From Psammoneis japonica (taxonomy: Eukaryota), in contig QPGO01000131.1 in the NCBI GenBank assembly GCA_008632985.1, forward strand, positions 1 to 64,000: DNA of 64,000 nucleotides. The letters are read 5' to 3'. Both the position numbers and the translations under genes were made by a program. Shown here piece after piece: positions 11,866 through 62,721 of this stretch; within the stretch, counting starts at the first letter, position 1, and each line of letters opens with the position of its first letter. The notes below the pieces were generated by a model. That model was given only the letters and a program-made list of their open reading frames with translations. It did no database searches and was not told where the DNA came from.

Positions 11866-12983
11866 CTAATCTACTTGAATTTCTTTCGCATTTACTTTCG
11901 TGGGTAATATCCCTAGCTTGTCTGCTTTGAAGACTGTCGCTAGTACACTCTTTGAAATAGAAACAAAAAGCTTGACGGGAAAACTGAGACGCCAGTGGAA
12001 AAGAAAATGAAGTGCAAAGACAGTTCGATGGCAATAATTTTTTTTTCGCCTGCAGGAGGATCGAATGGATTTATTCGCCGAGATACTTTCCAAGCTCTTC
12101 GCCCATGCCATCCCAATCTTGAAAGCCGTGAAGCTCCTGAAACCACCGACTTGCACTCGCGCTAGTAACGTAACAAACATTAAACTTCACCGATGGCACG
12201 TCTTCGAAAACATCCATGAAAACGATTCCATTTCCCCCATGAGAGTGGATCCATGCCCATGCCCCTGCCATTCTGCGGCAGTTTCAAAGAGTTCAATAGT
12301 CGGGCCAACATTGTCCATTTCGCCGTTTTCGTAGGAGCAGAGAGATTTTGCAATGACCTTGTCACCTTTCTTGAGGGAGAAATGAGTGCCTAACCTGAAG
12401 CCTTCAGCGTCTCCGGTACCGGTACGTTGTATCACTGTTAGGTCGCCATCCTGAGTTATCACATCTTCCTTATCTTCTATGCGGGCAAGAGCAAAGTGCT
12501 CCCCTAGCTTGTCGACTAGTGATGCACCAGGCTCGGAAAGAAAGCGCAGCACAAGCCATCCATTGGCAGTAGCCATCCGGAGAATAGTTTCTTGTCCTTT
12601 CTTCACGTCGAGAGGTTCGTAGTATTTGTCTTCTAAGTATCTCCTTTCTTTTTCATCTTTACCTCCTGATTCTTTGGCATCCTCCTCTCCACTGCTGCAA
12701 TAACTGTCCACGTAGCCATCAGGAGGCACCATGCAGACAAAACCTTCACTTCTTACAATCTTTAAGGCAGTTATCAACGGATACACGTTCTCCTCTGGCC
12801 ACTTCTTTCCTTTTCCTGCAATCACGGTAGTCGGAGGCCCCATAAACGTAACTGCATTCTCCACAGGTTGAGGATCGGTTGGTCCGTTTCTGAGTAACCC
12901 CAATTCAGTTCGAAAGTGGCAGGTGTCGCGGATGTTGGATTTGCCACCCGTTTGGAAGTATCACGAGTCTTTGCAATTCCCAT
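11866..12983 (-). CDS. Hypothetical protein with a GNAT acetyltransferase-like motif A, frameshifted
   Basis: ORF 12187-12903 contains IELFETAAEWQGHGHGSTLM (QGxGxG acetyl-CoA loop); flanking ORFs in other frames extend both ends. Confidence 0.5.
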
Positions 12984-13289
12984 TGCCTCCTGCAAAACAA
13001 AAGGGAAATGACTCATAACTGCAATTGCACAACTGTATTAGAAACAGCGATATAATATCGAGAGAGGTTGAGGCGTTGACGCTCGCTAGCTAGAGGTATT
13101 AGCGAATCAAAAGTCAAAAGCAAACCAAAAAAAAAACGGAGACGCATCGCAGGCGCGCGGCAGATCCCGCAAATCGTTGATCACGAGATGTTTTTATCCC
13201 TGTCTCAGTGCGATCGCGAGCAATTGTTGATGATTTGACATCATGCTTGACTGCCAACTGCGGTGATGCGGGTAGACTAGACTCTAGAG

Positions 13290-15810
13290 TGTTGCAAGTT
13301 GCAAGTCTTTGTAGACACGGTGCTGTCTGTCACATGTCAAAGCTCTGTCAGCTCTAGCCACTGCAGAGACCTTGATCCCGCTGTTCTTGCAGCTGACTTC
13401 CTCCCAACAACATGTTTGCAAATCTGTCCAATGGCCATGCCTTTTTGTCTGAGACTTGACCATCAACAACTTCAACCACCCGCATGGTGCCATCCCGGCA
13501 CACAATTGCATTGACAGAATAAAATGGGGCATCAAGAAGAGAAGCAACTGATTCAACAACACCTGGCACTCTGATTGCTCATCTGGCGCGCACACTTTCT
13601 GGCCAAACACAAAACAGCGTTGCTCGGCATCGGGAACAAAGTCTTCAACCTTGCGCACTGCAATTCCGCCTTCAATGTCACCACAACACTTCGCGATCAG
13701 TTCAACGACTTCTGTGGCTTCGTCGACAGAACCAGCAATTGACCCACATCCACTGGTGTTTGACTTCACATGATCTTTGACAAAGTGCTGGCCCCAATCA
13801 AGCTTGGCTGCATTCTCCTTCAAAGAATTGTCATTGGGAAAGAATGCAGTCTCTGGAGTGTGGTCCTTGCAAAGCTCACACCATCCTGGCAGTGTGACAG
13901 CTGGTGCAGTCTGCGACACTCGTCAGCGCTTTGCCTCCTTTGGGCTCGATCTTTCGCACCATTCCTGCGCAGTCCTTGGGCGAAAGCATCCAACTGCAGT
14001 GCAGAAGCATCTCCACTGGCTGATTCTTGGCTTGGGTTTGAACTCAAAAGCCAATTCATCAAAGTCAAAGAGCAAGGCCTCTGCCCCTGCTTCCTTCAGG
14101 GCTTGGACAGGGACCCATGCAAAAATGCACACACTGGAGATGACAATCAATTTCTTGGCAGCAGGCACAGCAGCAGCTGTTGACACATGTTGGTGCTTTG
14201 GAGACATTCAGCTGACTTTTTGTTTTTGTTGCTGTTTTTGCAGCCCCCCCTTGCCCCTTCTGGCTGGGGTGCTTCAGATCACAAACAAGCACACAAAGTT
14301 CTGTTTCAACTGTTGCCAAGAGCCAAAAGAGATTTGTGATTGTGTGCATCATTGCATGTTCTTGCCCGCTGTGGTGCCTTGACTCTCTTGTGAGTTTCTT
14401 GGTCTTTCAAAAGTGACTTTGTTGTCTGACCACAATTTGACCAAAGGCACATCACAACAACAAGTGAGGGTCAAAGCAAGCAGCAAGTGAAGAACAGCAA
14501 CAACAAAAAATTTTCACTTGTTGCCACCAGCAGTCAAGTTGTTTTCTAAAAAGTTGGACAAACCTCCCATGCTTCTTGACACTGGCAGAGTGTGCTAACA
14601 TCAAATTTGAGAAAGGTGTGGGTTTTTGAGTTCCCTTTGCCTGTTGCCCAGCACCTGAGCAACAAGCTGTCACAGAAATGGAGTCAATTTGGAATTTTGC
14701 TTCATGTCCAACAACCACTCTTTGCTTGCCAATGAGCAGTGCACATGAGCTGCTGCAAAAATGACCTGCTCTTCAGCTGCTTTAGATTTGGAGGGACCTG
14801 GCAGTTTTCCCCTTGTTGGACAACACATGGAATGAAGTTGTTGAAAAGAGCTGCCTCGGAAGCTTTTCAAAAATGAAAAGGTTGGAGTTGACAAATTGTG
14901 AAGTGCACGCCAGTCGCCAGTGGATGTCTTTTCAATTTAATTGACAACAAAGGAAAGATGGCAGTTTGTGAAGGATTTGAAGTGAAACTGGAAATTGACC
15001 CAGATTTTATGTTGAGGCTTGTCAAGGGTCAAGCAGCTGGAACAATTGAAGGCAAGCAACCTGGCAAAGAAGGTGCGACAACCTGCCCAAGCATGTTTTG
15101 GGTGAGGGCATGACAAATTGTTGCAAGACACCTTTGTGTCATTTTGGTGTGGCGGTTCTTCCGCAACACTTGCAAGTTAGGGTCAGTGGCAAATTCATTG
15201 GTTGGGCACACACCAGAGAGCAACAGTCATGCCACGACTCTTGCACAACTTTCATGGCCCAATCTAATTTCAAAATTGGCACACATGCACTTTGGTGCAC
15301 ACAGTTTTGATGGGAAAGCAGAGTCCTCCCCACTGCCTCTGGCACCCAGTTGAAGAAAAAGTGTCCAATGTTGTTTGTGGAAACAAAAGTGGTTGCATGG
15401 AGCAACGTTGATCTTCCAGTGGCAGTGGCATCTGCAAATGAGGGAGAAGACAATGCTTGACCAGCAAGAAGGCTTTTGCCAAAAGTGTTGTGTTGAGCCA
15501 GTGAAAGGATGTTTGCCAGTTTGCTTTGAAAAAGGCTCATTCTTGGTGCATCTCTGGTGCTGTGAACATTTTTCATCTTGCTTGGGGAGCAGGGACCACC
15601 CTTCTTTTACTGCAAGGAGCAGCAGCTGGAATGCCAAGAGAGCTTGCAGAAATGTGCTCCAGATTGAGCCTTGCTCCCTAGCATCCTGTTTGTTCAGACA
15701 CTGGGCAGTGCGTTTTCTGCCGTTCTGGAGTGGAGAAGCAAAACCAGGCAGGAGAAGAACCAGGGCACAATGATCATTCACTGGACTTTTCTCCACCAAA
15801 TCAAACAAGG
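13290..15810. other. TpA-depleted, TpG/CpA-rich island of decayed sequence
   Basis: Only scattered TA dinucleotides over 2.5 kb versus several per line in the flanking genes; CpG is also low in 14000-15800. Confidence 0.85.
13354..14207 (-). pseudogene. Hypermutated pseudogene of a bacterial-type ATP-grasp (DUF4343-like) protein
   Basis: Reads LLHCSWMLSPKDCA...LTSVADCTSCH.LPGWCELCKDHTPET...LDWGQHFVKDHVKS...DIEGGIAVRKVEDFVPDAEQRCFV...FYSVNAIVCRDGTMRVVEVVDGQVSDKKAW. This matches the family pattern YRGWML...HxLPxWY...TPET...KDYVKS...EGG...RxVEDF...ExRYFV...ExGDGQVSD, with Y replaced by H/C. Confidence 0.75.
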
Positions 15811-15963
15811 ACAGAAGGGCTAGTAAAATGTAACAGGAACGGAACTTAATTCAACAAGCTTGTTGACTTAATAACCTGCAGCATTGTTCTCCCGAAAAGA
15901 GGAAGGTTGGTGCGGGGTTACAACATGACCATCATCTAAGCAAGTGCCAACACCCAAGTGCTC

Positions 15964-17307
15964 TTAGAGCGGGGAGTCACCAGCCTTGGTTTGATTGAGG
16001 AGCGCGGTAAGAGAGTCACGATACGCATCACACGCGTGGTCTCCAAGCATTGTCGTTTCCATGTACAATTGACGCATAACCTTCATCCCACCGTGCATGG
16101 CTCGTCCGCCAATGACAGATTTGTGAGCGCAGCTCTCCCATAGCGAGACGACCCGCCCGGGCACAAAAAGCTCGATTTCCTGCAGCTCTTCTTGGTTGTG
16201 CTCGTCTTTATCGATTTCAGCGTCAAGGAAGTCTGTTAGTTCTTCCGGCTCCATCAACAAATGTTCGTCGTACTTCATCAGATCAGCAAAGTAGGTACGA
16301 GCGGCCTTGAAACTGTCTGGGCTAAGGCCTTTTTCGTCGAGCTTGGAATCAATCTTCATGAAGAGTTTGTGCAACATGCGCAGATTCAACAAGGACATGC
16401 GAGGGACACAATCGGTATTGTTCACCACGGATGTAATGTAGGATTGACAATCCATGCTGGCTTGAAACGAGGCACAGGCCGGAGTTGCAAAAGCATAGAC
16501 TTGGAGGTCCAGCTTAGGGAGACGGTCCTTCAGGAAAATACCCAACAGAGATGATACTCCTGCACCCAACGAGTGACCACACACAACCAGCTTGTAATTC
16601 GTCGGAATGAAGAGATTAGTGATCATATGAAGGGTGTCTTCGAGCATCAAGTTTGCTGCATTCCACATTCCTTCGTGACAACGAATGGACGAATCGCACA
16701 GCTCGTGGGGAATGGCCTTACCAATTATATCGGTCAAGACATCACTCACTGTTGAAGTTCCCTTGATGGACAAGACGACCTCTTTGGATTCGTGATGAAC
16801 AGCGATGAAATGGCCGACTCTTCCAGGCTCTGGGAACGTATCGTGGCGAATCAAGAGGTAATCCAAGGGCCGCAACTTGTCACTCAATTCCAAAAGACTG
16901 TCTTCATATGCCCATTTGGCAAAGTTAACGTATTTGCAGAGCTCTTCGAGTTCCTCGACCTTCACTTTTTCACCTTCAGCTTGGAACCTTCTGTCCTTGA
17001 AGTCTGGGTACAGATTATCGATTTCGTTCTCCAAGTGAACCATGCTCATAAAGCTGGCATACAGCTTAAACCATGGCATGTCATCAGGAATTAAGTCTTC
17101 ACTCTTCTCGTAAGACAGTTGAATCATCTCTTTCATCTTGCTCCATATCACCGCGGGCGAGGCCAAATCCTCGGTGCCTTCCTCATCATCTGATCGCCGT
17201 TTCTTGATCCATTTCGGAGATTTCTTCCAAACCTTTCGCAAGATTACAACCGTTGCAATAACAATCACAACGGTTTTTGGTGTCACGGATGCGGAGAGTC
17301 GACTCAT
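15964..17307 (-). CDS. Class-3 lipase (DAG-lipase-like) with N-terminal membrane anchor
   Basis: Intact 447-aa ORF; VVLSIKGTSTVSDVLTD, CHEGM, VCGHSLGAGV (GxSxG), AFATP, VVNNTDCVPR, DHACDAY. Confidence 0.9.
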   Translation of the reverse strand: MSRLSASVTPKTVVIVIATVVILRKVWKKSPKWIKKRRSDDEEGTEDLASPAVIWSKMKEMIQLSYEKSEDLIPDDMPWFKLYASFMSMVHLENEIDNLYPDFKDRRFQAEGEKVKVEELEELCKYVNFAKWAYEDSLLELSDKLRPLDYLLIRHDTFPEPGRVGHFIAVHHESKEVVLSIKGTSTVSDVLTDIIGKAIPHELCDSSIRCHEGMWNAANLMLEDTLHMITNLFIPTNYKLVVCGHSLGAGVSSLLGIFLKDRLPKLDLQVYAFATPACASFQASMDCQSYITSVVNNTDCVPRMSLLNLRMLHKLFMKIDSKLDEKGLSPDSFKAARTYFADLMKYDEHLLMEPEELTDFLDAEIDKDEHNQEELQEIELFVPGRVVSLWESCAHKSVIGGRAMHGGMKVMRQLYMETTMLGDHACDAYRDSLTALLNQTKAGDSPL

Positions 17308-18440
17308 GTTGACACAACAAAGTCAAGTCGCAACAGGCACGATACTATTCTTCGTCGATAGAGAGAATAGAAGGTTCCAAGGTGACGAATGCGTCGATCG
17401 CATTTTTCCGCAGTCGATCGCGATCTTTCCTCGTTGGACGTGCGCGGTCGCCGGATCTTCCGCGCGAGAGCTGCTTGTGGGTCGCGCGAAAAGATTCAAG
17501 ACGTTCGTCGATCGTCGAAGGTACAGTACTTCTATCTCTACTACATAGAGCTAGAGAGAGGAGTCTCTCTTGAAAGCCTTCTTGCCTCATCCTTTATGCA
17601 GAAGCACATTAGAAAATGAATAGGGCGCCTCTACTTTCGAGGAGAGCCGGCTACGGACAAATGATTCTACCTGAGATCTAGCATTGCAGTGTCGTCCAAG
17701 AGGAGATGTGGCTCGTGCATGAAGTGATCACGTGTTTCGGCATTTCTTGATCTTCATCTGTTGCCAGTTTTTTCAACTCACTTTGCGCTCACAGTGGTGA
17801 CTGTACAAGAAGCAAGAGAGCAGGAATTGTCTCTCCGGCATGCTTCTCCTCGCCCTGTCATCAATTCCACAGTTGTGCTGTGCTGGTCGAGTTCTGGGAG
17901 CATTTCCGCCTTTTCGACCGTGGTTGCTAAATAGCTGTCAATAACACAGGCACAACATCTCAGCACGCGCTTTCGTCGCTGCCATCGTCTTTAATTCTGC
18001 CAATCTATGGCTCCATCCTTTCTACCTCGGCAAGCTCATGGAAGAAGGCAGGACGCTTTTCGCATCGGCATTAGATCCTCGCTGAAACAGTTTCCGCCTT
18101 TCAGTAGGTTGCTTCCTCCTTACTTTTATTTGAGCGACACAAGAACCACAAACGACTTACACGTTCCTCAACCTGAACCAGCTCAAAGAAATGCCAGGTC
18201 CCAAACTTCAGTCGCCCTCTTATCTATCCAACAGGACAGGTATCGTGTACTCATGACTGTAAATGAAAACAAGAGGTTTCGAGGGCAGTAGCTTCAAGAT
18301 GCGGTGCATTGCAACGCTGCGTCAAATGCGCTGTAGCAGAGTGTCCAGTTTCCACTAAGCCCTGGTGGGCAGAGGAGTAAATGCCATGGTCGTTGCCCCC
18401 TTTTGTTTTGCGCTCAATATATTGTAATATTGAATACTTC

Positions 18441-23384: not shown

Positions 23385-24621
23385 TCTATGGCTCCAACCT
23401 CCCATAGAAACCATTTATATGAAAATGTTTGGCATTAAAATGTGCACATTTTTTTGAGTTTGCATGGCACGCATGATCTTGCCTTGCTTGGAGCTTGGAC
23501 CATCAACCCTGACGCTGACTTTTTTGTTGCAGGAGCGCTTTGTTGCAACAAAAAACATCAGAGAATGATGGGAAACAATCACGGATCCAGAACCGCTGGA
23601 AGCCTTCAAAAAATAATTTGTGTGCTTGTCATTGACTCACAGATGGACCATCACAAAAAAAAAATTCTCAGCGGGGTGACAACGACGAGATCTGTGGCGC
23701 TCTTTTTGACACATCAAATGACCCCTGCTTGCATGCACAAAAATTAATGGATGGTTGATTGAAACCCACGCAGGATTGAAGGGCACATGGCTTTATGTCA
23801 TCAAAGCATTGAGGTCATCACAGAAGTGAAAACAAAAAATGAGCTGCTGTTGTTGCTGTTTTGTGCAGCTGACCAGCTCACTTCTCTTCTCAGCGTGCCA
23901 TCATTGCTTTGCCAGCACCACTTGAATCTGACTTGGGTCAAAGCACAACTGAGTCAGAAGACAGAGCAAACAGGAGTGTGAGGAGGAGCAATGATGACAC
24001 CGCTGCTTTTGTTCCTGAGCGGCATTTTGGGAATTGGCATGAGTGAGTGCTGCCAACACTGCACTTTTTGTTGAGAGCCCACCATTTGCTGTTGTGTTTG
24101 AAAGAAGAAAACTCACACATTTTGTTCTCACCCACACACTGCATTGCATGGTGGACTCTTGTTTTGTGGACGAGATGAAACAGCCCCACCCCTCCTGTCA
24201 ACCAGCCGGCCTTTTTTGGCACAACAGTCCAAGCGGCGCTGCTGATGGCAAATGAAAAAGACACCCCAACCAAGCTTGGAGTGTTTCAGAGTGGGGTTGG
24301 CAACAAAATGCTCCAGTCGAGTGTCACAAAAGAGGAAACATTCGATGACACACACACAGCAGCACCTCTGCAAAGGGCCCAACAGAGAGGATGCTGTGGC
24401 AAGTGTGGCTGATGTGATCACAAGATTGCAATCAGAGCACTCTCAAGGGGTGCAGATTCTTGATTTCAGGTTTTGGAAAACAGAACTTCAAGGCCTGCAA
24501 GGACACCCTTTGTCTTTTTCAGAAGTGGAGCCAGCGGCAGAGAACATTGGGGTAAAGCAGCGTGCCAAAACATGCTTGCAGATAAAAGAGGATGATTAAT
24601 GGGAGGGTTGGAACCCACAGA
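23385..24621. mobile_element. Putative non-autonomous TIR element with TpA-depleted interior
   Basis: Left tctatggctccaacctcccat (23385-23405) vs reverse complement of right end tctgtgggttccaaccctcccat (24599-24621); interior 23430-24590 nearly TA-free. Confidence 0.45.
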
Positions 24622-24909
24622 CACGTTGTTGATAATCTGACTTTCGTGCATTGACCATGATGCAAGGTGGGATTGTAGCAAGGTTCTGGAGCGCACGTCT
24701 CGGCTTTCTGTCACGTCCCAAGTCCCAAGAATCGCCAGTGGGCATGCGAAGCTTCTTCAATTACTAATCTGGATCGTAGAACGGGCCGATGGACAGCAGA
24801 AACCTATTCCCAAATCATGAAACTAACAAACGAGTAATGATCACTATCTCTTACGCACTACGTGTTCATTGGACGACATTGGACATGCATTTCATACAGT
24901 GCTGTATAC

Positions 24910-25956: not shown

Positions 25957-28900
25957 CACTACATGAGTCAGGGGACACTACAGCCGTAGGCCTGGTACAA
26001 AGCAGAGGCGCGTAGAGAAGTGTACCAGACATCCCGTGGGCCTAGCTCATGACCCATCATCACAAATAAAAACGGCCAGCCACATTATTTTTGCTTTTCA
26101 ACGGACCAACGGTGTTGTCGTTATCAACGACATCACCGTTGTAGTTGTCTCTATTCACAACCGCGAGTGTCTCATTTCTTGGCATGTTACAAAGGAAAGG
26201 TAAGTGAGTGTGCTGCAACGGGCTCTTTAGTTTATGTTGCACTGCTGCAGAACTCAATCTTAGCCTTTGTTTCGTCCCCGATGTTTTCATCCTCCAGAAA
26301 GACTCGCTGCCAATCTTCAGGTGCCTTGTTTTCCACCGCAAGGAAATAGATTGGTGCCCAAGACTTTTTGATGACTTCTTCCTCTGCAATGACCACACAC
26401 TCTCCTGATGGGTCAGTCTCCAACAAGACACCAACTCTTTCCGGCCCTTGCTGTTGAACTCGGGCGGCTCTTTTCTTGGCAGCTTTCCGCATGACCTTCC
26501 GCCTCTTCGATTCAATCTTTTGGACAATGGCTTGGACATCAGGCAAGTGGTTCTCTGTGACTCGACGAGCATGGCAATTGACCCTTTGTGCAGTGTCAAC
26601 CATTGAACTTGTTGCACTGCAGGCATCACTCAGGTGCGGACGGCAGTTCTCAAAGCCCCCTTCGTCACATCGCCCTTGCATTTTAAGCCGTTCACTAGCC
26701 TGAGCTCCATGATGTTCATCGCGATGCATGCCTTGACACACACTGGCCCAGTGTTCTCATTTTTGTCTGGAAACTCTTCTCTCCATGCTTTTGAGTGCGC
26801 CGCAGTCGCTTCCCCCATTTTCAGCAAGTCGCCACCCTCGAGCTTCCGCTGAGTTTTCATTGGCTTTGCTTTGGCAAGCAACGGTGTTGCCACCTTTTTT
26901 GTTTTGTCCATCAACTCAACAATGGCAGCATGCACCTCTGGACTCTCATCCTTGTTGTGTGCATTGCATGTTGCTTCGCAGATCTTGTTCCACACGGACA
27001 GAACCTTGATGCCAGCTGCGTTCGACATGTTGCATCCTCCGAACATGGGATGGCAGGTCGCGTTGCCGCACACTTCAATTGACCTTGTGAAAACATGGTG
27101 TGCCGGTCCTTTCGGCTTGTTGTCGGACTTTTCACATGCATTGACAGCTTCAAGGACAGTTGACGCTCCACGCGTGAGCTTCGTCAAGACTCCGAATTCT
27201 GTTTCTTCGGAATGCTTCTTTTTCTCGGCAACCAAACACTCGAGATTTGCTTCGTGCCTTTGCACTGTGGATTCCAAGGGAGTGTCCTTGGCCCTTTCTG
27301 CAGCTGGTGCTGCCTCCACTGACTTGATGTCTTTGTCACAATCCCGGTTGGCTTTCAGGAGTGCGTTGCAGTCCTCGGAGGGCGTCTTCTTTCTTGCACT
27401 CAGCATTGTTTTTAACATCAAGCACATGCTCTCCCCAAGGTGCTTCCTTCTCAATGTTGGCAAGCCGGTCTCGAATGAGTGGACAGAGATGGTGTGAAAA
27501 CGTGCTCATTGTAAAATGCGCGGGAGAGCTGAGGTCCTTGCTTTGATCTTGAACGAGGAAGGCTTCTTTCGTTTGGCTGGCTGAGGTGAGTCTGTCTGAT
27601 CGATCTTGTGTGGCCGTGTGCTTAAAGTCACCGCCGTTTCGATTTTTTGTGCACGCCTCAAAGTTGGCTGTTGGGGAGTTCTCGCCAGATCTTAGAGGAG
27701 CATCGCAGTGCTTCCATTTCCCTTTCTCTTCTGGTTTCTCATGAACTTCCATCCAGCGAGGAAGATGCTTTGAAAAATCTGCAGCTTGCATCGTACATGT
27801 GGGACACGAGCAAAGCACTGAGGCGGTCCCCATGCCGCTCAAAATGTTTTGCTGCTTCCCATCATGAGATTGAAGAGCAAACATCCCTTGGCTTGACATT
27901 CTTGCACTCGCACCGACCGGAACGATGAGCGGTGCAGGGATTGGGAAGCGTGCAGACATGAGCTTGCAGGAAGGTGAGTGAGATTCATCATGCACTTCAA
28001 CGCCAGTGCACACAATCGCATTGTCGGGGGCATTCGATGGCTTCTCGTTTGCATTGGCAAGGACTGGCTTTGCTGCCAGCTTTCTCACAAGATTGACAGC
28101 AGCTTCTGGTGACGCAGCAACGCTCCCTTCCACAGACAATGTAGCTGGCTTCTCTCGGGGTTGGTGTGCTGGTAGATCTGATGCAACATCTTGAGATCGC
28201 TCAAGCAAGATGTCATCGGACAACACCGATTCCTCTGCACTCTTGTCTTGCAGCTCCACAAGCACAGGGATGCAAATCGGCACCTTGCCATCCTTGTCAA
28301 CAATTTCGATCAGCAGCACGGTCACCTTGTCGTCAAGCAGCAGCTGTGGGAAAGCCTGCAAGGGAAGATCCTTTCGGAATGTGTGCTGAGACGAAGATTC
28401 TCCCAGCATTCGCTGGCCTCTTCCACCACGGCAAGACGGGTTCCAGTCCCAGGTGGGACTTTTTGTGACATTGGGCCCGCAGAATTCTACGTGCGAGCTC
28501 CGTGGTAAAATTGTCAAGCAATGAACACATGAATGATCGCCAACAGAAAAAGAGGCAATTTTGCGAACGCATCTCCTCCTCCACACTTGAAGTGCATTCT
28601 TTACAGCATGCCCGGGTGTGTTCTTTAGACATTAAACAGAAAGCCTTTGGCTTCGCAAAACAGGCAGTGTGGAACAATTTTTTACAATAGAACACGCAGA
28701 AATGTACGTGCGAAACATGCGACGGATGATGAAAAATAATTGTGTCACAGTTCAGCAGTGCGAGGTCCCACCAGAGCTGGAACACGTCGCAAGCACCCCA
28801 CAGTGATGGGCTGTGTTGCCGTCCTTGCGGTTGGCAATGCGGATCAACAATGAAGTGAGATCGCCTCCTTTGTCAATGCCAAAGACTGGCACAATCATGG

Positions 28901-30734
28901 ATTTCAATGCGGAGAAAGATTCAGAGGCTTCGAACTCTCCGGTTTCTATGGCTTTGGCTGTCAGCTTCTCAACCACCAAGCACAAGTCACGTGGAAACCA
29001 CATCACGCACGATTTCTTTTTCGATTCCCTCCTGTCGGTGAACAATGGCATTTTCATGATCCTTCTTGGAATGTCCTCTTTCTTGACGCATTCATTCACC
29101 AGATTACGAGCATTCGGAGGGAAGACGCATGACAGGTGCTCGGGTCGAGAATGCGCGAGAAAAATGTTCAAGCGGTGGAGCGCGTTGCAGCTCATGTGGG
29201 GATCAACACATTGCCGCAATGCAACAATCTCTGGAGGAGCAAATGTGATTTTCTCTTGTTCAACAAGGATGAGCTTTCGTTTCTTTGCAACTTGCTGGAG
29301 CACGGCTGGGCTTTGCTCTGGGCGCTCGTCCAATTGCTTTTCAATGGCGGATGCTTTTCGTTTTGTCACACGCTTCTTCAGATCTTTCATGTCTTCAGGA
29401 ATTTTCTTGCTCTGTTGAAGATTTGAATGCTTGGCAGAGAATCCTCCGCCATTCTTCGTGCACTTCAAAGTGACAATTCCCTCATCCGTGGTGCACTGCT
29501 TCAGAACCGAGAATGCAAGGGTTTGAAGTTCTGTGTCGGGCTTGTGCAATGAATCTTTCAACACCGAATCACAAAATGGCTTGCTTGCTTCTGCCACAAG
29601 TGCGTTTGGATCTGGCTCAACTGGATGAGCAATTTCTGACAAAGTGGCAGCAGCAATGTTGTTCAGATTCGTCAGAGAGGTCGACGACTCCTCTGCGGCA
29701 TCTTCCGATTCCTTTTGATTCTTCAACAGTCGACTGGAAGATTCATGAAGAGAAAAGTTTTCCATCAACAGATCACTTGTCAATTCTAGCATCTCTTCCG
29801 GACTGGTGCTCTTGAGATGCTCCTGAATCTTCTGCTGGAGAGTCGCTCGGGTTGGCGGATGCACTGTTCTTGGTGGGCTTGACCCCACCGTGTCTGGAGA
29901 GATGACTCGAGCGGGAGGGGGGGAGGCACTTTCATGGGAGCCAGTTGAAGGAGGGGAGGACATTGACTCACTGGATGACTTAACAGCCTTTGCTTCAGCA
30001 TTTGCCACTTGGCTCCTTGCTCTAGCTCGAGCATCCCTGTCGTCTCGAATCACTTGCTCGTCTCAGAGGCAAGCAAACGGTTTTCCTTTCTCGGCCGTTG
30101 CTGAAACAACTGTTGCAACAGCGGCATTGTAAAGTGCACTCACTTTGAGCTGCTCATGAAGTTGAGTAATCTTCTTTCCATAAAAACGGCCACATGCATC
30201 GATGAGCGAATCTTGGTCGATGCGCACTGCCTTGGCAAAAAGCAAAGCGCCAGGGATTCTTTCTTTGCTTTTGCTGTTGTGTTTGACCACCCAGCACGAA
30301 CATCCGGGGATGACTCCATCCATGCCACCATTTTTGTTGAATTGGTCAATAAATGCACGTACTCTGGCATGTGCTTCGGTCGGAGAGACCTTTGAAACCT
30401 TCGCTTGACTCTGACGGATGGAGGCAACAACAGCGACGATGTGTGAGAAGATGTGAAAGAAGTTGTGTGAAAAAACAGCATCTAAGGAAGTAAATCGAGC
30501 GGCAATCACTATACCACATGCTCCCAATAGGGTTTAAAAAGACTCTCCAGATGCGATTACCGCTCGATTATCAACATTAACGCCGCCGTGAACGATTTGC
30601 GTGCCATGGTCGATGTCATTTTTTCTCTTGCAAAAAGCACGAGGATTGTGAGGTGGCGGACGAACGCGCCAAAAAATATTTTAGTCGAATTATTCAGCTA
30701 TAAGGTCCCTTCACGTAGGCTGACTCATGTAGTG
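25957..30734 (-). mobile_element. 4.8-kb DNA transposon, Chapaev/Transib (RAG1-like) type, with perfect 15-bp TIRs
   Basis: TIR CACTACATGAGTCAG at 25957-25971 and its reverse complement at 30720-30734; flanks ATTC / ATTT; interior encodes a broken DDE transposase. Confidence 0.85.
26232..30527 (-). pseudogene. Decayed Chapaev/Transib/RAG1-core-like transposase
   Basis: Collinear ORF pieces with VFGIDKGG-x-LLIRIAN (about 28864-28886), HDGKQQNILSGMGTASVLCSCPTC (about 27795-27866), SSPAHFTMS, HPMFGGCNMSN (about 27040), GRCDEGGFEN (about 26650-26670); almost no Tyr codons. Confidence 0.7.
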
Positions 30735-33589: not shown

Positions 33590-35850
33590 GAGGAGGCTTC
33601 TGATGGCCAGCAGTGCAAAGGACATGGTTGGTGGTCATCTCAAAACCAGGACCGGTGTAGTCAGTGTTCTGCTCCATGACCCACTGCCAAAGGAACCAAT
33701 TACCAGAAGACGAACCACTGTGCAGACATGACACTCTCACCTCCCTTGACTCGCTTAACTTGAGGGTGCTTTCAACGGCTCTCTCCATTGCAAGCACTTG
33801 CTCAAATCCAACCTCAATCTCCCATGAAACTCCTCCAGATCCAAAGAAACTGGTCTCAAACCTGGCACTGATAGACTGCAAGAATCTGCAGGACTCTTCC
33901 ATGTTGACTGAAGTGGACCTTGTTGCAGTCATGGACTGAGTGACTGTCATGGACACATGCAGCCCAGACTCACCGGTCCTCCACTCTCCAATGACAGGCA
34001 CAGTTGACACACCACAGTGAAGATTGTCTCAAACCCAAAGTGAAGGCTGTTCCATGATGTGCCATCTTTGTGAATGCCAAAATCTTGGACACTGAGTTGC
34101 ACTCCCTTCACACCACATTTGTCGTCAACAACAGCAGGGCTCTTCCAATCTCCAAAGAGTCCCTTTTCAACTTCTGCCCACTGCGCAGCTCCTGACACAG
34201 GATTCTCACAATGAATCTTCCATCCATTGAGGCAGCGTCATCCTCATGATGGCCGCAAAAGTCATCCAACCTCATTTGAGCTCTGTTGACAAACAAGCTG
34301 TGGGGGCACATCTTTTTCTGCTTCCAGTCACCAAAGAGGCCTTTGTTGATTTTTTTCTCAGTTTGTGTGCACCAATGAAAGAGTGAACAGAATGCAAGCT
34401 CCAGAACATTGGTGGAAGTGTTGTCTTGGTGCTTGCCAAAGTCTTGTTGGAGTTGGGTTTGAGCATCAAAAATCAACCTTTCTCCTCTGCTTGCCGTGGT
34501 CTCCAATCACCAAACACACCAGGCTTGATTGTCTTGTCTCAATGTCTTTTCCCAGGAGAGGTGCTCACTTGTCACCTGCCTCTTGCAGAGGGGATGGTGG
34601 GTGCAGCATCCATGCTGTCACACTGTCCTTTGAGCCAGCACAGAGGCTTCAGGGGTGTCAGCGGCTCTGCCATGAGCAGAGTTTTTTGCAAGGACAAGGA
34701 AGACTGAAGGAGCAGAGGGTTTCATTTTGGATCTTTTTGCATTGTTCATTGCTTGTCATTTTTGGTTCATTGTTCGTTGAATTTGTGAGCAACTTTCGAC
34801 ATGAAAAAAGCAGAGTGCTGGATCAGCAGTGGCTGCAAATTCCATGACTCAACTCAAAACTGCATGTGCACTTCCAGCACCAGCAGCGCACCTCTGTTTC
34901 CACCATGTGACTGAGAAATGTGTTGTGTGTTGTTTTTCATGTGCACATTCAGTGTTTTAAAACATCTTTTTTGTCTGCTTGATGAGTGTTGTCAGCCAAG
35001 TCATTGTCGTTGTTGGTGTGCGCTTCACAAACAAAATTGTGGCTGTGCGGCAGAAAGGGAAAATGACAAGTTGTTGAATCTTGGAAGGTGACATTGATTC
35101 ATGGTTTGTCTGTGTGCCACTGCTGACTTCAGCACCAGAGCCTGGCATTAAAGATGCACAGAAGCAAACTTGCGCAACAAGCGCACGCTGCAAGAAAAAA
35201 GAGGGTGCTGGCAGCGTCCCTTTCTTCTTCTTCTTTGATTTCCACCACTCCCACCATTGGCAGCAAGGCAGCCATTTGCAGTTCAACATGTGCTTTTTTG
35301 ACAGATTCTGGCAGCATCATGTCCCATGTCAAAATTTGTGCTTGCCAGCGAGCGCCCTTTTCTTTTCTTGCTTTTGGTGGAAGCCTTCAACAAGCTCATT
35401 TTTGATCTTACAAATTCTTCCTTTGACATTGATTGCAGCCACCTTGTCATTCTGTTCCACCAGCTTTCCTTCAACTGGGGGTCCTGACACTCACAAATCA
35501 CGTCAAAGCCTTTGCAAGCACCGAACATCACCGCACGCTGGTGGCTTCGTCGACAAACCATCAAAAAATCCCGTTGTCATCACTTCAAGTTCATGCCAAT
35601 GGGCTTTTAACAATGGTGAAAAGTGACACTTGGGTGGTCTCTCATCGGTCTTGTTCATGGAAGATGGTGTCACTCTCTTTGACAGCATCGAGAAAGTGTG
35701 TGCATGCCTGAGCCAAGGAGCGCACCCCCCCGCCTTTGGGGCACAAACAACAAGCAAGAGCAAAGAGCAAAGGAATGAACAGAGGCAACAAGGACTAGAT
35801 TCAAAAGCATTGTGAAGCGCCACACGGCTTACGAGCGACAGTTCAGCTGG
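33590..35850. other. TpA-depleted island of decayed coding-like sequence
   Basis: Very few TA in about 2.3 kb, CpG also low; many overlapping stop-poor spurious ORFs rich in C/H/Q. Confidence 0.8.
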
Positions 35851-36126
35851 AACAATGCTTGTCAAGAAGATCTTTGCCCGCCATCTTCAATCTTCAACTC
35901 GATCGTCCTGCGAGGAAATGCTGGTCCGCGGAATCCGCATCCCGCGCGAAGGTAAGGCACCGTCCGTCCTTCGCATCCGAGCACACAGAGACGAGACACC
36001 GAGACACGTGCGACGATATCGCCATGATGATGGTGTTATTGGTCGCTACCGTACGTCGCGCTGTTCCTTCTTGAGCAGGACCTTAAAGCAGAAGTATCAA
36101 TCTTTTGGTAAATCAGAAAGACAACC

Positions 36127-40535: not shown

Positions 40536-41525
40536 TAGCCAGTGGAGCATGAACGGAGTTTGGTACCGCCACATCAGTAAACTTACAAATTTTGAATCTT
40601 TTTCGTTAATCTCTTGAGAGTATTCTAGCTAGCTACTTCAGAATAGCTAGCTACTTCAATATTGGAATTCTTCTGTTGCTCCGCCAGTTCGGCAGAACAT
40701 TTGTAACTCACTAAGAACAAGTGAACACGACGAATCAATAAAAAACATGCAGGCGATACCAGCGCCGAAAGAATCCAGCACATATCGTCTTGGGGCATAC
40801 CGTAAGGAATACTCCAATCCCATCTGAAAAAAGAGAGCGGTAGGTGTGGTAAAAAAATAGAAATGACAACATCAAAGTACGCAACAACAACGCAAGCGCT
40901 ACGACCGTCATCGTAGTCCATTGACGTACGCACGGAATGAATAACAGGCCAATAAAGATTGCTATATTGCACTTTTAGTATTTCTACTTCTATTGTAAAG
41001 TTTCAAAACGTGTTTCAAAAATTTGAAACACACCAATGTCAAAAGTTGTTAGAAATCGGTCGCGTAGGAGTAATGATGCCTCAAGAGCGCCATCAAAAGA
41101 TAGAGCTCAAGCTTTTACGTATCTTCAGGGTGAAACATCACCCCAAAAAAAGAAAAAGTGGGGACGTAATATGGAGACAACAAGAAAACTTGCAAGTCAA
41201 CCGCTTGCTAAGCCATTTCACTCCCTACGAGTGAAGGCTTACCGTGTTACCGTGTCACCGGTACGGCGAAACCCCGATTCAGCGTTCCATCAACGGTATG
41301 ATCTGCTCGGCGAGCTCTTGCTGCTTTGCAGACGAACACTTGCTGTCTCTTTCAACAGCCGTGGTCTTGACTGACCAAGTGAACGGGCAACTTCCTACGC
41401 TCAAACGCACGAGAGTGACATGGACTCAAGGCCGGAGAGACGCATTCGATTTGCCCCGACCTCCGGACTTAACTGGCAACACCTGCGCTACCATTTGAGA
41501 CAACACGCCATCAAGCTAAATGAGT

Positions 41526-41790
41526 TGTGGAATGCCAAACGAGAGCAAGGTCTCTATTATCCAGAGGAAGGGCGAGCCATCCTTGGCGATTCCGGCATTC
41601 AAGCTTGGCAAACAACAAACACATCGTGCGAGACGACGAGTTGAAAAGAGAGACAACACTTCGCGCAAGCAAAACATGCTGTGGAACACCAAACAAGAGA
41701 AAGCAATTAGAACCAGAGGAAGGGCGAGCCATCCTTGGGTATCGCTGCATTCCGGCTTGGCGAACAACAAACACATCGTGCGAGACGACA
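41526..41790. repeat. Tandem duplication, period about 153 bp
   Basis: ccagaggaagggcgagccatccttgg and aacaacaaacacatcgtgcgagacgac each occur twice (about 41561/41714 and about 41612/41763). Confidence 0.9.
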
Positions 41791-44700
41791 GTTGTGATCG
41801 AAACGAGCGCGAAAGGTCAAAAAGCGTGAGAGTTTTTGTTTGTGTCGTGACCGTTGCTAAATTTCTCAATCACTATCATTTTTGTGTATCCGTGTAGAAT
41901 TCCTACCATGATTTTGTATGTAAAAGATTCGTGGGAACTCGGTACTTTCCAAATTATTACTAATTCTTACGTACGCTTTACGGTAACCGTGGAAAACGCA
42001 AAAAAATGTCGCCAAGGTGACGTCTTCGTTGTCGAGGTCCGAGCTCAAACATCATGCCACAAACACGGCATTCAGCATGACGATGACAAAGCTCCGGATT
42101 GAGATCATCACAGATCACAGTAGTCGACAGGATTCGTTGGCGTGTCGTTTGTGTCAATTGATATTATATTCCAAACGAAGAAAGTGAAAAGGAACCTTTT
42201 CCGTGGTACGCGTTGAGCGTCACAGAAAAGCATTTGATTGCAGCAAAGTATGCGAATGCTTTGCTCTGACGCATGCTTCTACTTTTACCTGTTTTTAATC
42301 ATACCTCCAACCCATCCACTCGTATTGGTTCGTGTACCATGTCGGGTATCGAGTTCCCGGTATTCACTTTTCGGGGAGCATTTCCGCGAAATTTATCAAT
42401 TCGCTTTCTCAACCTTACCTCTGGCCAAGTGCATTTCGTCGACACTTGGAATGATTGCATAACAAGTCCTACTCCAAAAAATCAAAAAGAACTCGCGGTT
42501 TTTCGAATTCAAGTCATCTTGTTGATTTTGCTCGTGATACTCCGTTGCTGTGGGCCTCGTACGTACTCAATCCAGTCGTCCTGGGTCGGTACCTTAACAA
42601 TGGTCTGGCGCTGGATTTGCTGGACTATTATGGAAATGCCAACAACAATACGACTACTGACTGTCCAAACCGTGAATGCTTTTCCATGGCATCAATGGAG
42701 ATTGGTGAAATCCAATTGGGAGGACTCGATACACAGTCCAAAGTCGAATTGATGAGTAATGTGGGAGGTATCTACTACAATTTAAAATGAGGAGCTCAAC
42801 GTGTCGGCGAATGCCAGCCTTGCAGTCAAGTCGATTCCTTGTTGGAAATGTTGGTGCAGACATTAACCGCACTCTATTCATGGATATCATGTCGTCCATT
42901 ATTTCTGCCGTGCAAGATTACAACGACTCTGGTTTGGACTGCCTACTGAAGCCTCTCGAGACTTTGGCCTTGTCCAACACTATGACAGAGCTAAGCTTGT
43001 TGAGTCTGGAGCTCATGCCAGCACGTCAAGAGTGGAATCATCTTCACTAACCAGTGATTCAATCGAGGGCGATGGAGATATGTCCGTCAGCAATGCGTTG
43101 TCTCTCTACACGGCAGAATACGGCCAGGAAAATCGAGGTAGGAAAACCGTGCGGTAGTGAATTTGTTCGAGAGGATGACTGTCGTCTCTCACGTTTTGCG
43201 ACATTTTCTTTTCGGTTACCTGAATCGTCACGTTGATGACAGCGGTCAGCATTCAAGACTGGAAGTATCTGGCATCGTATGAAGGCGACGAGAACTGTAA
43301 AGAAGGCGACTACCAGTACGTGCATTTGACTGGGAATGTTGCGGGTTCTGGGGCATGGTATGTGCTGAAAAAATTAGGGGCAGGTTTGGGTGATTGCCTC
43401 AGTGCTGTGACAGGGGCTCTGGGACAAGGTGTGGAAGATGCAACAGACAGAGTAGGAGCTAAAGCATTGGCGCTTAAGTCGGTAAGTCGTTTGACGCGCC
43501 TCGATGTTCATGATTAGTCGATTAATAATACCTCACACTTCTAACCTTGTCGTTTCTGTAGTTGGAACAGTTAAACCCAGAAGGAACAGTTAAGCCCAGT
43601 ATCACCGAAGTGAGTACTGTGAAGCTCTAGAGACATCAAAAAACTTGGCGTCTCGAGGAGGCAGCCCGACGACTGCAGAAAGACACGATGAAGTCCATTG
43701 GCGTCATCTCGATTCCCTGCCTCGAGACGTGCAACGCCACAAGGCTTTTTTGGAAACCTATCTAGTCGTCCAAGATTTAAAGATAATGCCGCACCAATGA
43801 ACAAGGTAGCTAAGAAACTCAGCAACTCTCCCAGTTCCGACATTGAAGAACAGGTTTGCCCTCTCCGAAGGAAAGTATGGCCAGCACAACGGATGAAGGC
43901 AAAGACTCCGCAGAGGTTTAGATCGCTCAGGGTCGTAGTCCATGATCGTTACTCAGAAGCCAGATGATCCCCAAAAGTAAGAACGCAATATGGAATTGCA
44001 ACAATTCAGTCATTTGATCCAATTTTTGACATGTATGAGGTAGCACTCGACTGGCGGCTTTGTACAGAAAGGACTTTGAACTAGGAAGTGGATATCCAAA
44101 ACTACAAGGAGTCCATCAAAGTGTTAATCAAGGGTGAAGGCTTTTGACTTCTGTTGTCACAGGACTCATGGGCAGAGCTTTTTTTGGTCGGGAGATCCAG
44201 CCAGAAGCTGCGTATCATATTTTCGTCTTTCTTGCCACTCAATTCTTACGATTCCGAAGAAGCTCCTCATAGGACCGCACGCAAATCAGCCGGCAGCCGC
44301 TCCAATTTCTGAAATTTTCCGGAGCAAAATTCAAATTGTCTGCGTCATTTGGAATGCATCCTGGTGAGACGTCAGAATTAGTAGAGTCGGATGGCGGGCA
44401 TGAATCATAATCTCAAGCGTCCAGCCAATGGGCAAGAGACTGTCCGCCAAATCGAATCGCTCCTAAATAGTGGGGAAAGAAGCTTCAGCATTGAAAGAGA
44501 GGCACACTCTACGGTAGCTATGATGTGCTCTCCTGTAGTTTTCTGAGGGCTGCATAACGCCGTGACTTTGCAGTATGCTGTTGAGAATTCGTCGTGTTCA
44601 AAAATCGATTCCACTCTCTTTCCCACGAACACCTACGTACCATACACCAGGGAAGCGTTTATTGCGAGAGAGCTGTGTCCCAGTGGTCGCTGGAGAAAAT

Positions 44701-44929: not shown

Positions 44930-46197
44930 CTGTGCGGTAAATGTGTTAACATTCATGCTAAATTGAAAGCCTGAAAGCATTATAGAACTGCAAATGATCT
45001 GTGCCAATGATCTGATCTTTCTTTACCCTGTCACCCTTTGGACAAAAGGATGCCATCATTCATCTTGTTCTGCTCACCCTGGATTTGCATCCCATCATTT
45101 CATGCCCTTGTGCACAGCAAACATGCTCATGGAGCCGAGACGTGTTTTGTGTAGATTTTGACCTGAGCAGTGACACATTGACAGCTCATGATCTGTGGCA
45201 CTCATCCAAGATGCCACGCAAGCAAGATGTGGCAATTGCTGAACAGCTCAACAGGGAAGCAAATGGAATTTGGTGACCTCAGCCCTCCAGAGTGTGGCTT
45301 TGGACCAACCACAAGGCTTCTGCAGTGGCTCCCCTGCAAGACTGAGAAAGACACAAGCAAAGTCCGTCAACGTCAGAATTTTTGGCCTGAGAAGGTGTGC
45401 AACAAACCACAGGGAACAAGCACCATGTTGCACTTTGTGGCATTCTTTGCTTCAATGCATTCACAATGTGCACATCAACAGTGTGCTGTTTGAGCAATTG
45501 CTCCCCCACAGATGCTGCTGATCATCTCTCAAAAGCAGCGCCAGCTTCGTCTGTGACACCGCTGGCCTCTGGTCTCATGCAGCACACCTCAGTCAAAGCA
45601 GCACACTGTCTTTTGCAGCTCTGATCTGAGTGGCTTGTTCTCCAATGCTTCAGGCGGTGACTGCACAAAAGGAACAAGCACACACTGTGCAAAAGGGGGT
45701 GGGGGAACAAGCAGAGACCAAGCAAAATTTGAGCCCAAATGGGGTGTGCATAAATTCAGCATGGCCCGACAGCACCCAGCACAAAGAGGCAGAGAGTTGC
45801 ACAAGTTAACAACATCCAGGTGCAAGCAATGATGGCCAGCACTTCACCAGCCACAAAACTTTTGTCTTGTTTCCTTTCCATTGAGATCTCGTCGTTGGGT
45901 GCACCTGCTTGCAGTGGTTTCTTCTTGCACAGCATTTTTTGTTCTTGTTGCTTTCCTTGTCCAGAGAACAGTCCATCATGAACACAAGAGATTGCTGTTT
46001 GAAACAACATGAGGTGCTTGCCGTTGTCCATTCCTCATTTCGCTGATGAAAAAGGGGTTGATGCAAATGGCGACATCCAAGTGTGCACCAGCCCTGAACA
46101 GGAAATGCAAGGCACCACAGAGCACCCAGCAAAAAGCTTCCAATTTTCAATTATCTTGAATTCAAGCATGCTAGCTGTGGATCGTTTCACTGCACAG
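44930..46197. mobile_element. TpA-depleted island, possibly a decayed TIR element inserted at TA
   Basis: Left ca|CTGTGCGGTAAA...catgctaaattgaa vs right reverse complement ta|CTGTGCAGTGAA...catgcttgaattcaa; interior almost TA- and CG-free. Confidence 0.45.
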
Positions 46198-46408
46198 TAG
46201 ATGAGAGAAGCCATGTACAATTGGGACCATGTGAAATGGGGGACGCAGCTGGCGATCATGACCACTGCGTAGCCGCGCGCGCGCACACCTCGCTCTGTCG
46301 CTCGCTCGAATTACAGTACAGTAATTAACGGTATTCGCAGAGAGAGAATCCCAGAAATCCGTTGGAATTTCGCGAACCCGCAACAAAAACTTGAAAACTC
46401 AAAGCACC

Positions 46409-58301: not shown

Positions 58302-58439
58302 TGAACAGATCCACATAGGATTTATGGTTCTTCTACCATAGCTTCTACTACAATTGCTCTATCTAGCAGCAGAAATACGATTGTTCTAGAAACTTGCGTT
58401 GCGGCACAAAAACATACATTCGCCAATGAATTCCGAGTC

Positions 58440-61400: not shown

Positions 61401-62000
61401 TCAAACCTTGCTCTGCACTCTCCACATTGCAAGTCATGAGGTCTGAGGTCCAGACAAAAACCACTGAAGGTCTGCCACTTGACCCTTCAATCACAGGACT
61501 TGAGCAAATCTCCAAGGGTGGAGATGTGCTCACTTGCATTGCAGATGTGTTAAATGAAATGTTTTCAGACACACATGGGTGACAAAGAATTCTCAACATT
61601 TCTGTTTGGAGTGTGCATTTGCCAAACATCTGGGGAACCATTTTTGCAATTTAGAAAGTTCAATGTTGACTTTTCACACCAGCTTTTTTGCAAGCCACAT
61701 GCATGAACAGAGAGGAGCTAAATCCCAACCTTTGACAATGGCGGCTGTGATGAGTTGCTGTCTCACAAATGGAGCAACAATGCCACACCCTTGGAGCAAA
61801 TCTCTGCTGGTGGAAATTTGTTCCCAACAAGCAAAGGCATCTTGCACACTTTGCACAGATTGTGCATGATGACATTTTCAATGCTGTGTTCATTGTGTTG
61901 TGATGCAAATGTGCGGTGTCACAAGTTCCTCAAGAAGCAAAGTGCTCCGGTGGTCAAAGGATTGAAAAAACAAAACATTTGACCTTGAGGTCTGAGATTC
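58440..62000 (-). mobile_element. Heavily mutated Ty1/copia (CoDi-like) retrotransposon relic, RT/RNase H region
   Basis: Minus strand gives SSCNLLDRLLHA..SCR..AITTSSNFASPPALACCTA*KG...KCWDIKH (about 60030-60210; cf. FSYRxLLGxLLYAYVTCRPDxxYAITTLSKF), FLDAAHGNDL (about 59855-59885; cf. DAAHxNDL) and FHSILKKKLGFSQVSPAALFVDNQPA (about 59600-59690; cf. LRSILxELGFxQxxPTxLYxDN). Limits approximate. Confidence 0.75.
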
Positions 62001-62054
62001 ACACAAAAACCATTGGAGGTCCAACACACACATTTGTGAAAAAAAAATGTTGAA

Positions 62055-62721
62055 CCTTCTGACAGAATTTGAACAAGAATGACTCGCTCTTGCTCTGCCC
62101 CTGTCATTCAAGCATTGGTGGTGTCAGGTGGACATGGCGCAAGCAGAACTCTGGCCCACTGCAAGATCTGGTGCAACACCTTGCTGCTGTCTCCATGGCA
62201 GACAAGTCTCCATGCAGAGACCATCACAGGTGCCCCTGTGAACAATGAGGACATGTGTTCCAGGGTCAGGAACAGTTTCATTTTGGTCTGGCCAGGTGGA
62301 GGTGCCTGGTCTCATGCCTGTGATGACACGCCCAGATGTTCAGACACCCAGACAGCTGAGACACACAGTTGGTGTGACTCGAATCCAAGCCCACTCGCAC
62401 CAGAATGCACCACCATTGTCACCAACAGATCACTCCACTCCCCAACACAAAAACCATTGGAGGTCCAACAGGCATGACACCAGGCACCTCCCCCTGGCCA
62501 AACCAAAAGTTGTTTCTGACCCTGGAACACATGTCCCCATTGTTCACAGGGGCACCTGCAATGGCCTCTGCATGGAGACTTGTCTGCTGTGTAGACAGCA
62601 GTGAGGTGTTGCACCATGTCTGGGCTGGAGCTCTGCTTGCTGTGTCCACCTGAAGTCATTGACACTCAAATGACAGAGACAGAGCAAGAGTGAGTCATTC
62701 TTGTTCAAATTTTGTCAGAGG
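62055..62721. repeat. Long inverted repeat (arms about 62055-62321 and about 62468-62721, spacer about 145 bp)
   Basis: For example caggtgcccctgtgaacaatgaggacatgtgttccagggtcag vs ctgaccctggaacacatgtccccattgttcacaggggcacctg; also direct repeat acacaaaaaccattggaggtccaaca at about 62001 and about 62445. Confidence 0.92.

Follow-up and report, generated by a model that had tools for sequence, protein, structure and literature searches.

An R2K.3 ATP-grasp pseudogene of Psammoneis japonica that has lost nearly all of its TpA dinucleotides and tyrosine codons

The stretch of Psammoneis japonica DNA analysed here (the first 64,000 nucleotides of contig C131, hereafter the window) contains, between two genes of normal composition, a short block that is strongly depleted in the dinucleotide TpA (Table 1). 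An ATP-grasp pseudogene sits in the TA-poor rim of this block, while the core, which is also poor in CpG and contains 387 TG and CA dinucleotides where 225 are expected, holds the decayed copy of a multi-copy gene. A better-kept relative of this relic, P0314, has a frame of 290 codons with a single Tyr and a PD...ExK-like motif; it has no match in Pfam, and its apparent resemblance to restriction-endonuclease-like (N-terminal) domains, judged by Atlas features only, is a weak lead. Pfam searches with 14 of the 30 stop-free fragments from 14.1-15.85 kb, and with 4 of the 71 from two related loci, gave no match above the cut-off. No viral protein was seen in the block, the victims examined being a cellular-type gene of a bacterial family, the multi-copy relic and a MITE. 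Operons that combine R2K.3 and GNAT genes are known (PMC4431377, available in part); a co-transfer of the ATP-grasp gene with its GNAT-like neighbour nevertheless found no support, the neighbour having a Pfam E-value of 0.077, no usable Atlas match and no real match at four bacterial loci.

Table 1. Features of the TpA-depleted block and its surroundings (positions in the window).
Feature	Position	Strand	Remarks
Flanking gene, normal composition	12187..12960	minus	TA 30 vs 50 expected; weak GNAT match below cut-off
Empty TA site; contig C158 carries a 527-base TA-rich MITE here	13100..13101		Unmutated; about 225 bases outside the block
TpA-depleted block between two normal genes	13326..15800		11 TA in 2475 bases
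Block rim	13326..13990		TA 2 vs 40.7 expected, CG 22 vs 41.1
Block core	13991..15800		TA 9 vs 129.7 expected, CG 11 vs 97.4
R2K_3 (PF14243) ATP-grasp pseudogene, recognisable part	13404..14105	minus	Basis: Pfam, HMM
Gly of the R2K.3 ExGD motif changed to Val	13465..13467	minus	Gly in 120/120 close homologues
Conserved Asp changed to Asn	13510..13512	minus	CpG-type transition across a codon boundary; Asp in 120/120 close homologues
Only surviving Tyr codon, also the sole TpA in the gene	13519..13521	minus	Basis: sequence
Nine former Tyr codons	13590..14001	minus	His: codons starting 14001, 13787, 13772; Cys: 13971, 13908, 13880, 13688, 13616, 13592
In-frame stretch up to the ATG at 14207	14106..14207	minus	Non-homologous to the family N-terminus, a weak 9-residue resemblance excepted
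Decayed copy of a multi-copy gene family	14732..15536	plus	68-69% DNA identity to loci on C206 and C126 (L041, L042)
Flanking class 3 lipase gene, normal composition	15964..17322	minus	TA 39 vs 91, CG 72 vs 78

The preliminary description had assigned the gene to an ATP-grasp family on the strength of four motifs (LLHCSWML and EQRCFV...KVCAP among them), all of which are indeed found, in two frames of the minus strand, within 13354-14207. This assignment is borne out by a match of the C-terminal piece to R2K_3 (PF14243; E-value 2.7e-6; score 28.1 bits, cut-off 26.3) and by an E-value of 1.6e-71 for the pieces, joined with X at three breaks, against an HMM built from 113 full-length homologues out of the 151 fetched; taken alone, three of the four submitted gene pieces have no Pfam match. 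We take PF14243 to be the family formerly named DUF4343. In the available part of PMC4431377, DUF4343 is tied to the R2K clade. No solved structure of a relative was found, the one match having an E-value of 0.62, and no intron is seen across the 702 recognisable bases.

The ATG at 14207, where the gene had been thought to start, is not the homologous start, since homology begins only at about 14105. The in-register resemblance of nine residues upstream of this point is weak, was picked post hoc and is equalled by 5 of 400 controls. The true 5' end of the pseudogene is lost or unrecognisable, and residues 1-69 of the closest intact protein, P0202, are without a match in the genome; a micro-inversion as the cause of the lost 5' motif was rejected, as 79 of 400 control stretches score equally well. 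At the opposite end the homologues terminate at 13389-13401 (minus strand), and the window continues via CAG and CAA codons to a stop at 13356-13354. Among these codons there may be a former stop that a TA>CA change erased.

Several hallmarks of the family are kept. Lys codons at 13778 and 13766 are found in columns with Lys in 113/113 and 112/113 homologues, and probably correspond, by alignment column, to the two conserved lysines of the RAGNYA fold described in the same source (PMC4431377); Glu 13625 and Arg 13619 of the ExR motif are also retained. In contrast, two residues that are invariant among close homologues are changed (Table 1). The Asp at 13512, judged by its place, would be the catalytic acidic residue of strand 4 in the ATP-grasp template (PMC4431377), while the Gly>Val change at 13467 is a transversion and thus of neither the TpA nor the CpG type. 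To judge from these two changes, the gene is a dead descendant of R2K.3 and not a working member, and it is a pseudogene on both haplotypes.

The second haplotype is represented by contig C158, which is collinear with C131 at 99.5-99.8% over 27 kb. Two breaks of the reading frame, near 14017 and 13570, are present in the window, in the C158 haplotype and in sequencing run X1. The third, at 13891-13893, is an assembly error, because it is absent both from C158 and from the X1 contig, which agrees with the window at all other bases of the gene and was treated as independent, yet may come from the assembly's own sample. A further run, X2, covers both flanking genes and leaves 13087-15874 uncovered; it was not counted as evidence. 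Single-base gaps of the window relative to X1 are found at 12218, 12886, 13891, 13893, 15141, 15150, 15304 and 15314, so indel errors are frequent in the assembly, and frameshifts in other parts of the genome need checking.

Within this assembly, the protein and the DNA of the pseudogene and the protein P0202, used as queries, matched the gene on C131 and C158 only, so the check for an intact paralogue that had been suggested disclosed no second locus at either the protein or the DNA level; a lost or unassembled duplicate is possible. Two other PF14243 matches, L003 (C41:269342-269890) and L004 (C6:167271-167516), were rejected as paralogues, as they belong to distant R2K branches and are missed by the searches with the pseudogene and P0202. 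Both are intact ATP-grasp genes of the R2K clade with normal Tyr content, and L004 adjoins DNA that looks TA-poor.

Between C131 and C158 there are 5 differences in 5923 depleted bases (one of them an alignment artefact) versus 26 in 21526 other bases. No excess of haplotype differences is therefore seen in depleted DNA, and present activity of a mutator is without support from this comparison. At 13998 C158 keeps an Arg codon where the window has Cys, and at 14596 the window reads TA and C158 reads CA.

The composition of the gene is extreme. One TA is present in 702 bases where 43.4 are expected (Poisson P of about 9e-9 even at half this expectation), none of the 227 codon junctions is T|A, and CG is found 21 times against an expected 43.3. 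In the genes of four bacterial homologues there are 31-51 TA and 10-11 Tyr each. Aligned with P0202, whose 10 Tyr read as six Cys, three His and one Tyr in the window, the gene has kept Phe at 10 of 11 and Trp at 4 of 4 positions (14/15 together). The same three His, six Cys and one Tyr are found at the ten columns of the aligned core that have at least 25% Tyr in 113 homologues, four more Tyr-rich columns having been set aside (three from the first 34 codons, where homology is lacking, and one from the site of a frame break). All nine altered codons are CAY or TGY, a single transition from TAY, as had been proposed for one-step loss through TA>CA or TA>TG, and Phe, Ser, Asn and Asp, which are likewise a single step from Tyr, never take its place. 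Columns with Tyr in 120/120 and 118/120 close homologues have His or Cys in the window. The accompanying change of RG to CS, attributed to CG>TG/CA, fits two CpG transitions, with the Arg codon retained in C158.

Single sites are less informative than the pattern. By itself, the His of the KDxVKS site has no diagnostic value, being shared with 6 of 113 distant homologues and with P0004, but it is found in none of 120 closer homologues; at two other former Tyr sites His occurs in 3-12 homologues (up to 12/109). Intact homologues that already have His or Cys thus exist for individual positions and were not found for the pattern as a whole. The gene differs from P0202 at 83 positions, 35 of which are judged to be derived in the window (50% or more of 147 homologues have the P0202 residue, or it is shared with P0283 while the form in the window is rare). 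These comprise 13 single changes of the TpA type, which include Thr>Ala and Val>Ala, 6 single changes of the CpG type, 4 other transitions, 8 transversions and 4 multi-step changes. The mutator may have killed the gene or may have acted after its death, the loss of TpA being accompanied by 12 single substitutions of other kinds and by two breaks of the frame.

The direction of change is also recorded at the DNA level, in a MITE family with at least 27 matches in the genome. One haplotype-specific insertion (G000:C158:153805-154331) corresponds to the empty TA site of the window. The copies carry terminal inverted repeats and TA duplications, and we take them to be of the Tc1/mariner type. Twenty long copies were aligned and 7 partial ones left out, and sites were scored where the consensus and the second subfamily agree (a slightly wider span gives 41 TA sites). 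In 18 copies, which form two subfamilies, the sequence is TA-rich, with 0-6 differences from the consensus at about 104 TpA bases. In copy L030, 32 of 40 TA have become CA (14) or TG (18), and the flanking TA target-site duplications now read CA and TG; CG is changed at 3 of 15 sites (p 7e-5 for TA versus CG), and T>C changes are found at 30/78 T in TpA versus 9/180 in other T contexts. In copy L033, 33/40 TA have become CA or TG and 12/15 CG are changed. Because the TA-rich state is common to both subfamilies and two copies have lost it, TA is the ancestral state, with both strands affected; furthermore, the loss of TA with little loss of CG in L030 indicates that TpA loss can precede CpG loss and that the two are separate processes. 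The claim that TpA was ancestral and then removed is accordingly upheld on three counts: the codons compared with intact homologues, the MITE family and the differences between haplotypes. Young copies (L012, L028 and L029) adjoin depleted DNA yet are untouched. With copies in fresh, TA-only-mutated and TA+CG-mutated states, the family is a good natural time series.

The gene's block is one of eight depleted runs in the 64-kb window, the further ones lying within 23426-24625, 26251-30475, 33726-35950, 45001-46200 and 58426-63975. Much CpG is retained in the runs at 26.3-30.5 kb, which also contain long Tyr-free frames; three long frames in depleted runs other than the gene's have no Tyr in 291-436 codons. 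Across the eight runs, the surviving TA is in the context YTAR in 39/72 cases, compared with 318/1880 outside (odds ratio 5.8), and TA followed by a pyrimidine, on either strand, is thus the preferred target. In the MITE copies alone a preference for TAY is not significant (21/48 versus 11/34, p 0.36; 24/42 versus 10/28, p 0.09). Short pieces at 28432-28502, 28705-28792 and L042:759-1156 are shared with a repeat that has >1000 first-look candidates in the genome, and a 1.2-kb repeat with internal tandem units (40789-42003, 82% identical to C158:135122-136326) has normal TA in the window.

All homologues with a named source are bacterial. The closest intact protein is P0202, with 62% identity over 235 residues, compared with a best identity of 54% to a bacterial-type protein of 260 residues. 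P0202 and P0283, the two nearest relatives, are extended at the N-terminus by 30-45 residues, and the hydrophobic leader of P0202 resembles what we take to be a diatom plastid-targeting peptide. In a quick tree (56 rows, midpoint root, the composition of the pseudogene flagged as unusual), the pseudogene forms a clade with P0202 and P0283 (98% SH-aLRT) inside bacterial diversity, with end branches of 0.46 for the pseudogene and 0.10 for P0202. The N-terminal extensions, one of which is like an algal targeting peptide, make an old bacterial origin likelier than a fresh one, and the gene is probably an old transfer into algae that was a resident algal gene before its death in this lineage. The bacterial origin put forward in the preliminary description therefore holds for the family, whose named members are bacterial, and does not extend to a fresh transfer, against which the extensions and the clade in the quick tree both speak. 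A second set of R2K_3 proteins (P0026, P0287 and P0299) has signal-peptide-like leaders; the position of P0026 in the tree, apart from the P0202 clade, hints at a second transfer into algae.

Together, these comparisons show that the gene derives from an ordinary sequence that contained Tyr, that nearly all of its TpA was converted to TpG or CpA, which are one kind of A:T>G:C change viewed on either strand, and that CpG decayed too, less and separately. The reading that we favour, with a probability of about 0.6, is that a dead R2K.3 ATP-grasp gene lies in a small silenced block and was overwritten, as a bystander, by a local context-specific mutator. Silencing would be centred on the multi-copy relic (14.7-15.5 kb), and it may have extended from there across the gene or have set in after the damage to the gene's 5' end. 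TpA would be removed by an adenine deaminase that has DNA as its substrate and is guided by chromatin or RNA; it would convert A to inosine, which is read as G, and the candidate enzyme would share the preference of TadA/ADAT-like deaminases for a 5' T; CpG in the block core would be removed by deamination of 5-methyl-C. The gene would be hit as a neighbour and not as a repeat recognised by pairing with its own copy. Of the earlier idea that non-transposon genes are also targeted, what stands is that such a gene was hit, at one locus; instead of a target it may be a bystander, as it lies in the rim of a block centred on a multi-copy relic. Slow or episodic action of the mutator fits both the untouched young MITE copies and the lack of an excess of haplotype differences. 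Ten PF00383 matches in the genome, including TadA-like and ADAT2-like ones, look on reading like housekeeping types. Genes of these two kinds occur in most eukaryotes, so their presence is no evidence for a role here. A deaminase-like match below the cut-off (L082, C151:67565-67717) has a Tyr-free and Cys-rich translation, and is possibly a TpA-mutated pseudogene itself.

It is unlikely that no deaminase is involved and that TpA is lost as a side effect of the methylation and repair of DNA, for example where T:G or thymine-directed repair is too active, where a mutagenic polymerase is at work, or where modified adenine at TpA biases T>C in methylated chromatin. Losses of TpA and CpG do coincide in the block core, both yielding TG/CA, and no special enzyme was found among the PF00383 matches; however, both L030 and the rim that holds the gene have lost TpA ahead of CpG, T in other contexts has hardly changed in L030 (9/180 versus 30/78), and hypermutation in Bigelowiella natans is TpA-only and switches on in some lines (10.64898/2026.01.13.699255, available in part).

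Rather doubtful is the possibility that the same mutator responds to a RIP-like homology trigger, the gene having once been duplicated or carried in a mobile segment and its partner having been lost or left unassembled. Neither protein nor DNA searches found a second locus, 18 MITE copies of ~520 bases that are almost identical to one another are unmutated despite their many partners, and a single-copy region is affected in B. natans (10.64898/2026.01.13.699255). These observations weigh against a homology trigger even though the block core is a member of a multi-copy family, most other depleted DNA examined is repeated, and the 5' end of the gene is missing, as in captured fragments.

Recognition of the gene as foreign, i.e. 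the silencing and hypermutation of a recent bacterial insertion in defence against incoming DNA, is very improbable in view of the N-terminal extensions of P0202 and P0283, their clade with the pseudogene in the quick tree (98% SH-aLRT) and the lower identity to the bacterial-type protein (54% versus 62%), although the named homologues are all bacterial, the 702 recognisable bases contain no intron, and foreign-looking domains are reported to be enriched in the TpA-poor genes of B. natans (10.64898/2026.01.13.699255). Ordinary pseudogene drift or an inherited composition (due to a donor poor in TA or to selection that disfavours TA), with His and Cys already ancestral, can be dismissed despite the occurrence of His at one site in 6/113 distant homologues and at others in up to 12/109, and the 12/35 derived changes that are ordinary single substitutions, given the His or Cys in near-invariant Tyr columns (120/120, 118/120), the 31-51 TA and 10-11 Tyr of four bacterial homologue genes, the absence of Tyr>Phe/Ser/Asn/Asp changes and the polarity of the MITE copies.

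Compared with known systems, the process at this locus has both familiar and unfamiliar traits. RIP of ascomycetes changes C to T, mostly CpA to TpA, thereby raises TpA, and needs a paired duplicate. Both processes act within limited regions through transitions in a specific sequence context, ruining repeats and spilling over into adjoining genes, but here TpA is lost rather than gained, the reverse in base and product, and the duplicate that RIP requires was not found as a second locus of the gene in this assembly, although a copy may have been lost. Deamination of 5-methylcytosine at CpG in silenced DNA gives CG>TG/CA, and accounts here for the loss of CG in the core and for the Arg>Cys, Gly>Ser and Asp>Asn changes; it cannot yield TA>CA/TG, which is stronger and further-reaching at this locus. 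With R2K.3 proteins the pseudogene shares the RAGNYA lysines, the ExR motif and the match to the family HMM, and it is unlike them in its lost 5' part, two frame breaks and changed Asp and ExGD Gly. The family is listed for bacteria and, rarely, archaea in the available part of PMC4431377, whereas the nearest relatives of the pseudogene look algal.

The closest parallel is the hypermutation of TpA to TpG/CpA, at about 1000-fold over background, described in B. natans by Mettrop et al., who propose an ADAT-like candidate enzyme and report as targets two integrated viral regions (NCLDV and virophage DNA), one of them single-copy (10.64898/2026.01.13.699255). So far as the accessible part of that preprint goes, the shared traits are changes of TpA to TpG/CpA on both strands, regional action, clusters rich in TpG/CpA and poor in TpA, and an effect on single-copy DNA. 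The present case differs in its diatom-like genome, its near saturation (1 of about 43 TA left), the small sharp blocks between normal genes, the added decay of CpG, the YTAR bias of survivors, and its victims, a cellular enzyme gene and a MITE instead of viral DNA; in B. natans, the same spectrum was measured directly. No report of TpA hypermutation in diatoms was found in the literature searched, and the B. natans preprint, seen in part, could bear on cellular genes.

As a gene, the pseudogene is ordinary; it is of value because it cleanly records a mutation process that has seldom been described, and because it is a one-locus victim, the Tyr>His/Cys changes showing both the direction of mutation and its reach to ordinary one-locus genes. 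Natural, regulated A-to-G mutation of a genome has one direct report in the literature searched (the 2026 preprint, in a chlorarachniophyte), and the occurrence of this signature in a second lineage, at saturation and with a readable preference, provides a fingerprint by which the enzyme could be traced; such an enzyme would be a natural adenine base editor. The overwriting of a one-locus enzyme gene would also separate the process from pairing-based RIP, and bears on the loss of horizontally acquired genes from algae. Since TAA and TAG are removed, such pseudogenes keep long stop-poor frames and are at risk of mis-annotation as Cys/His-rich proteins. More tentatively, and with the odds against it, it may be supposed that diatoms share with Rhizaria a chromatin-guided DNA adenine-editing defence that is independent of pairing and foreignness, spreads from silenced repeats, precedes CpG damage and can irreversibly kill single-locus resident genes. 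If true, this would be a built-in route of gene loss across SAR, with the present locus an example of a domesticated, once-bacterial gene destroyed in this way.
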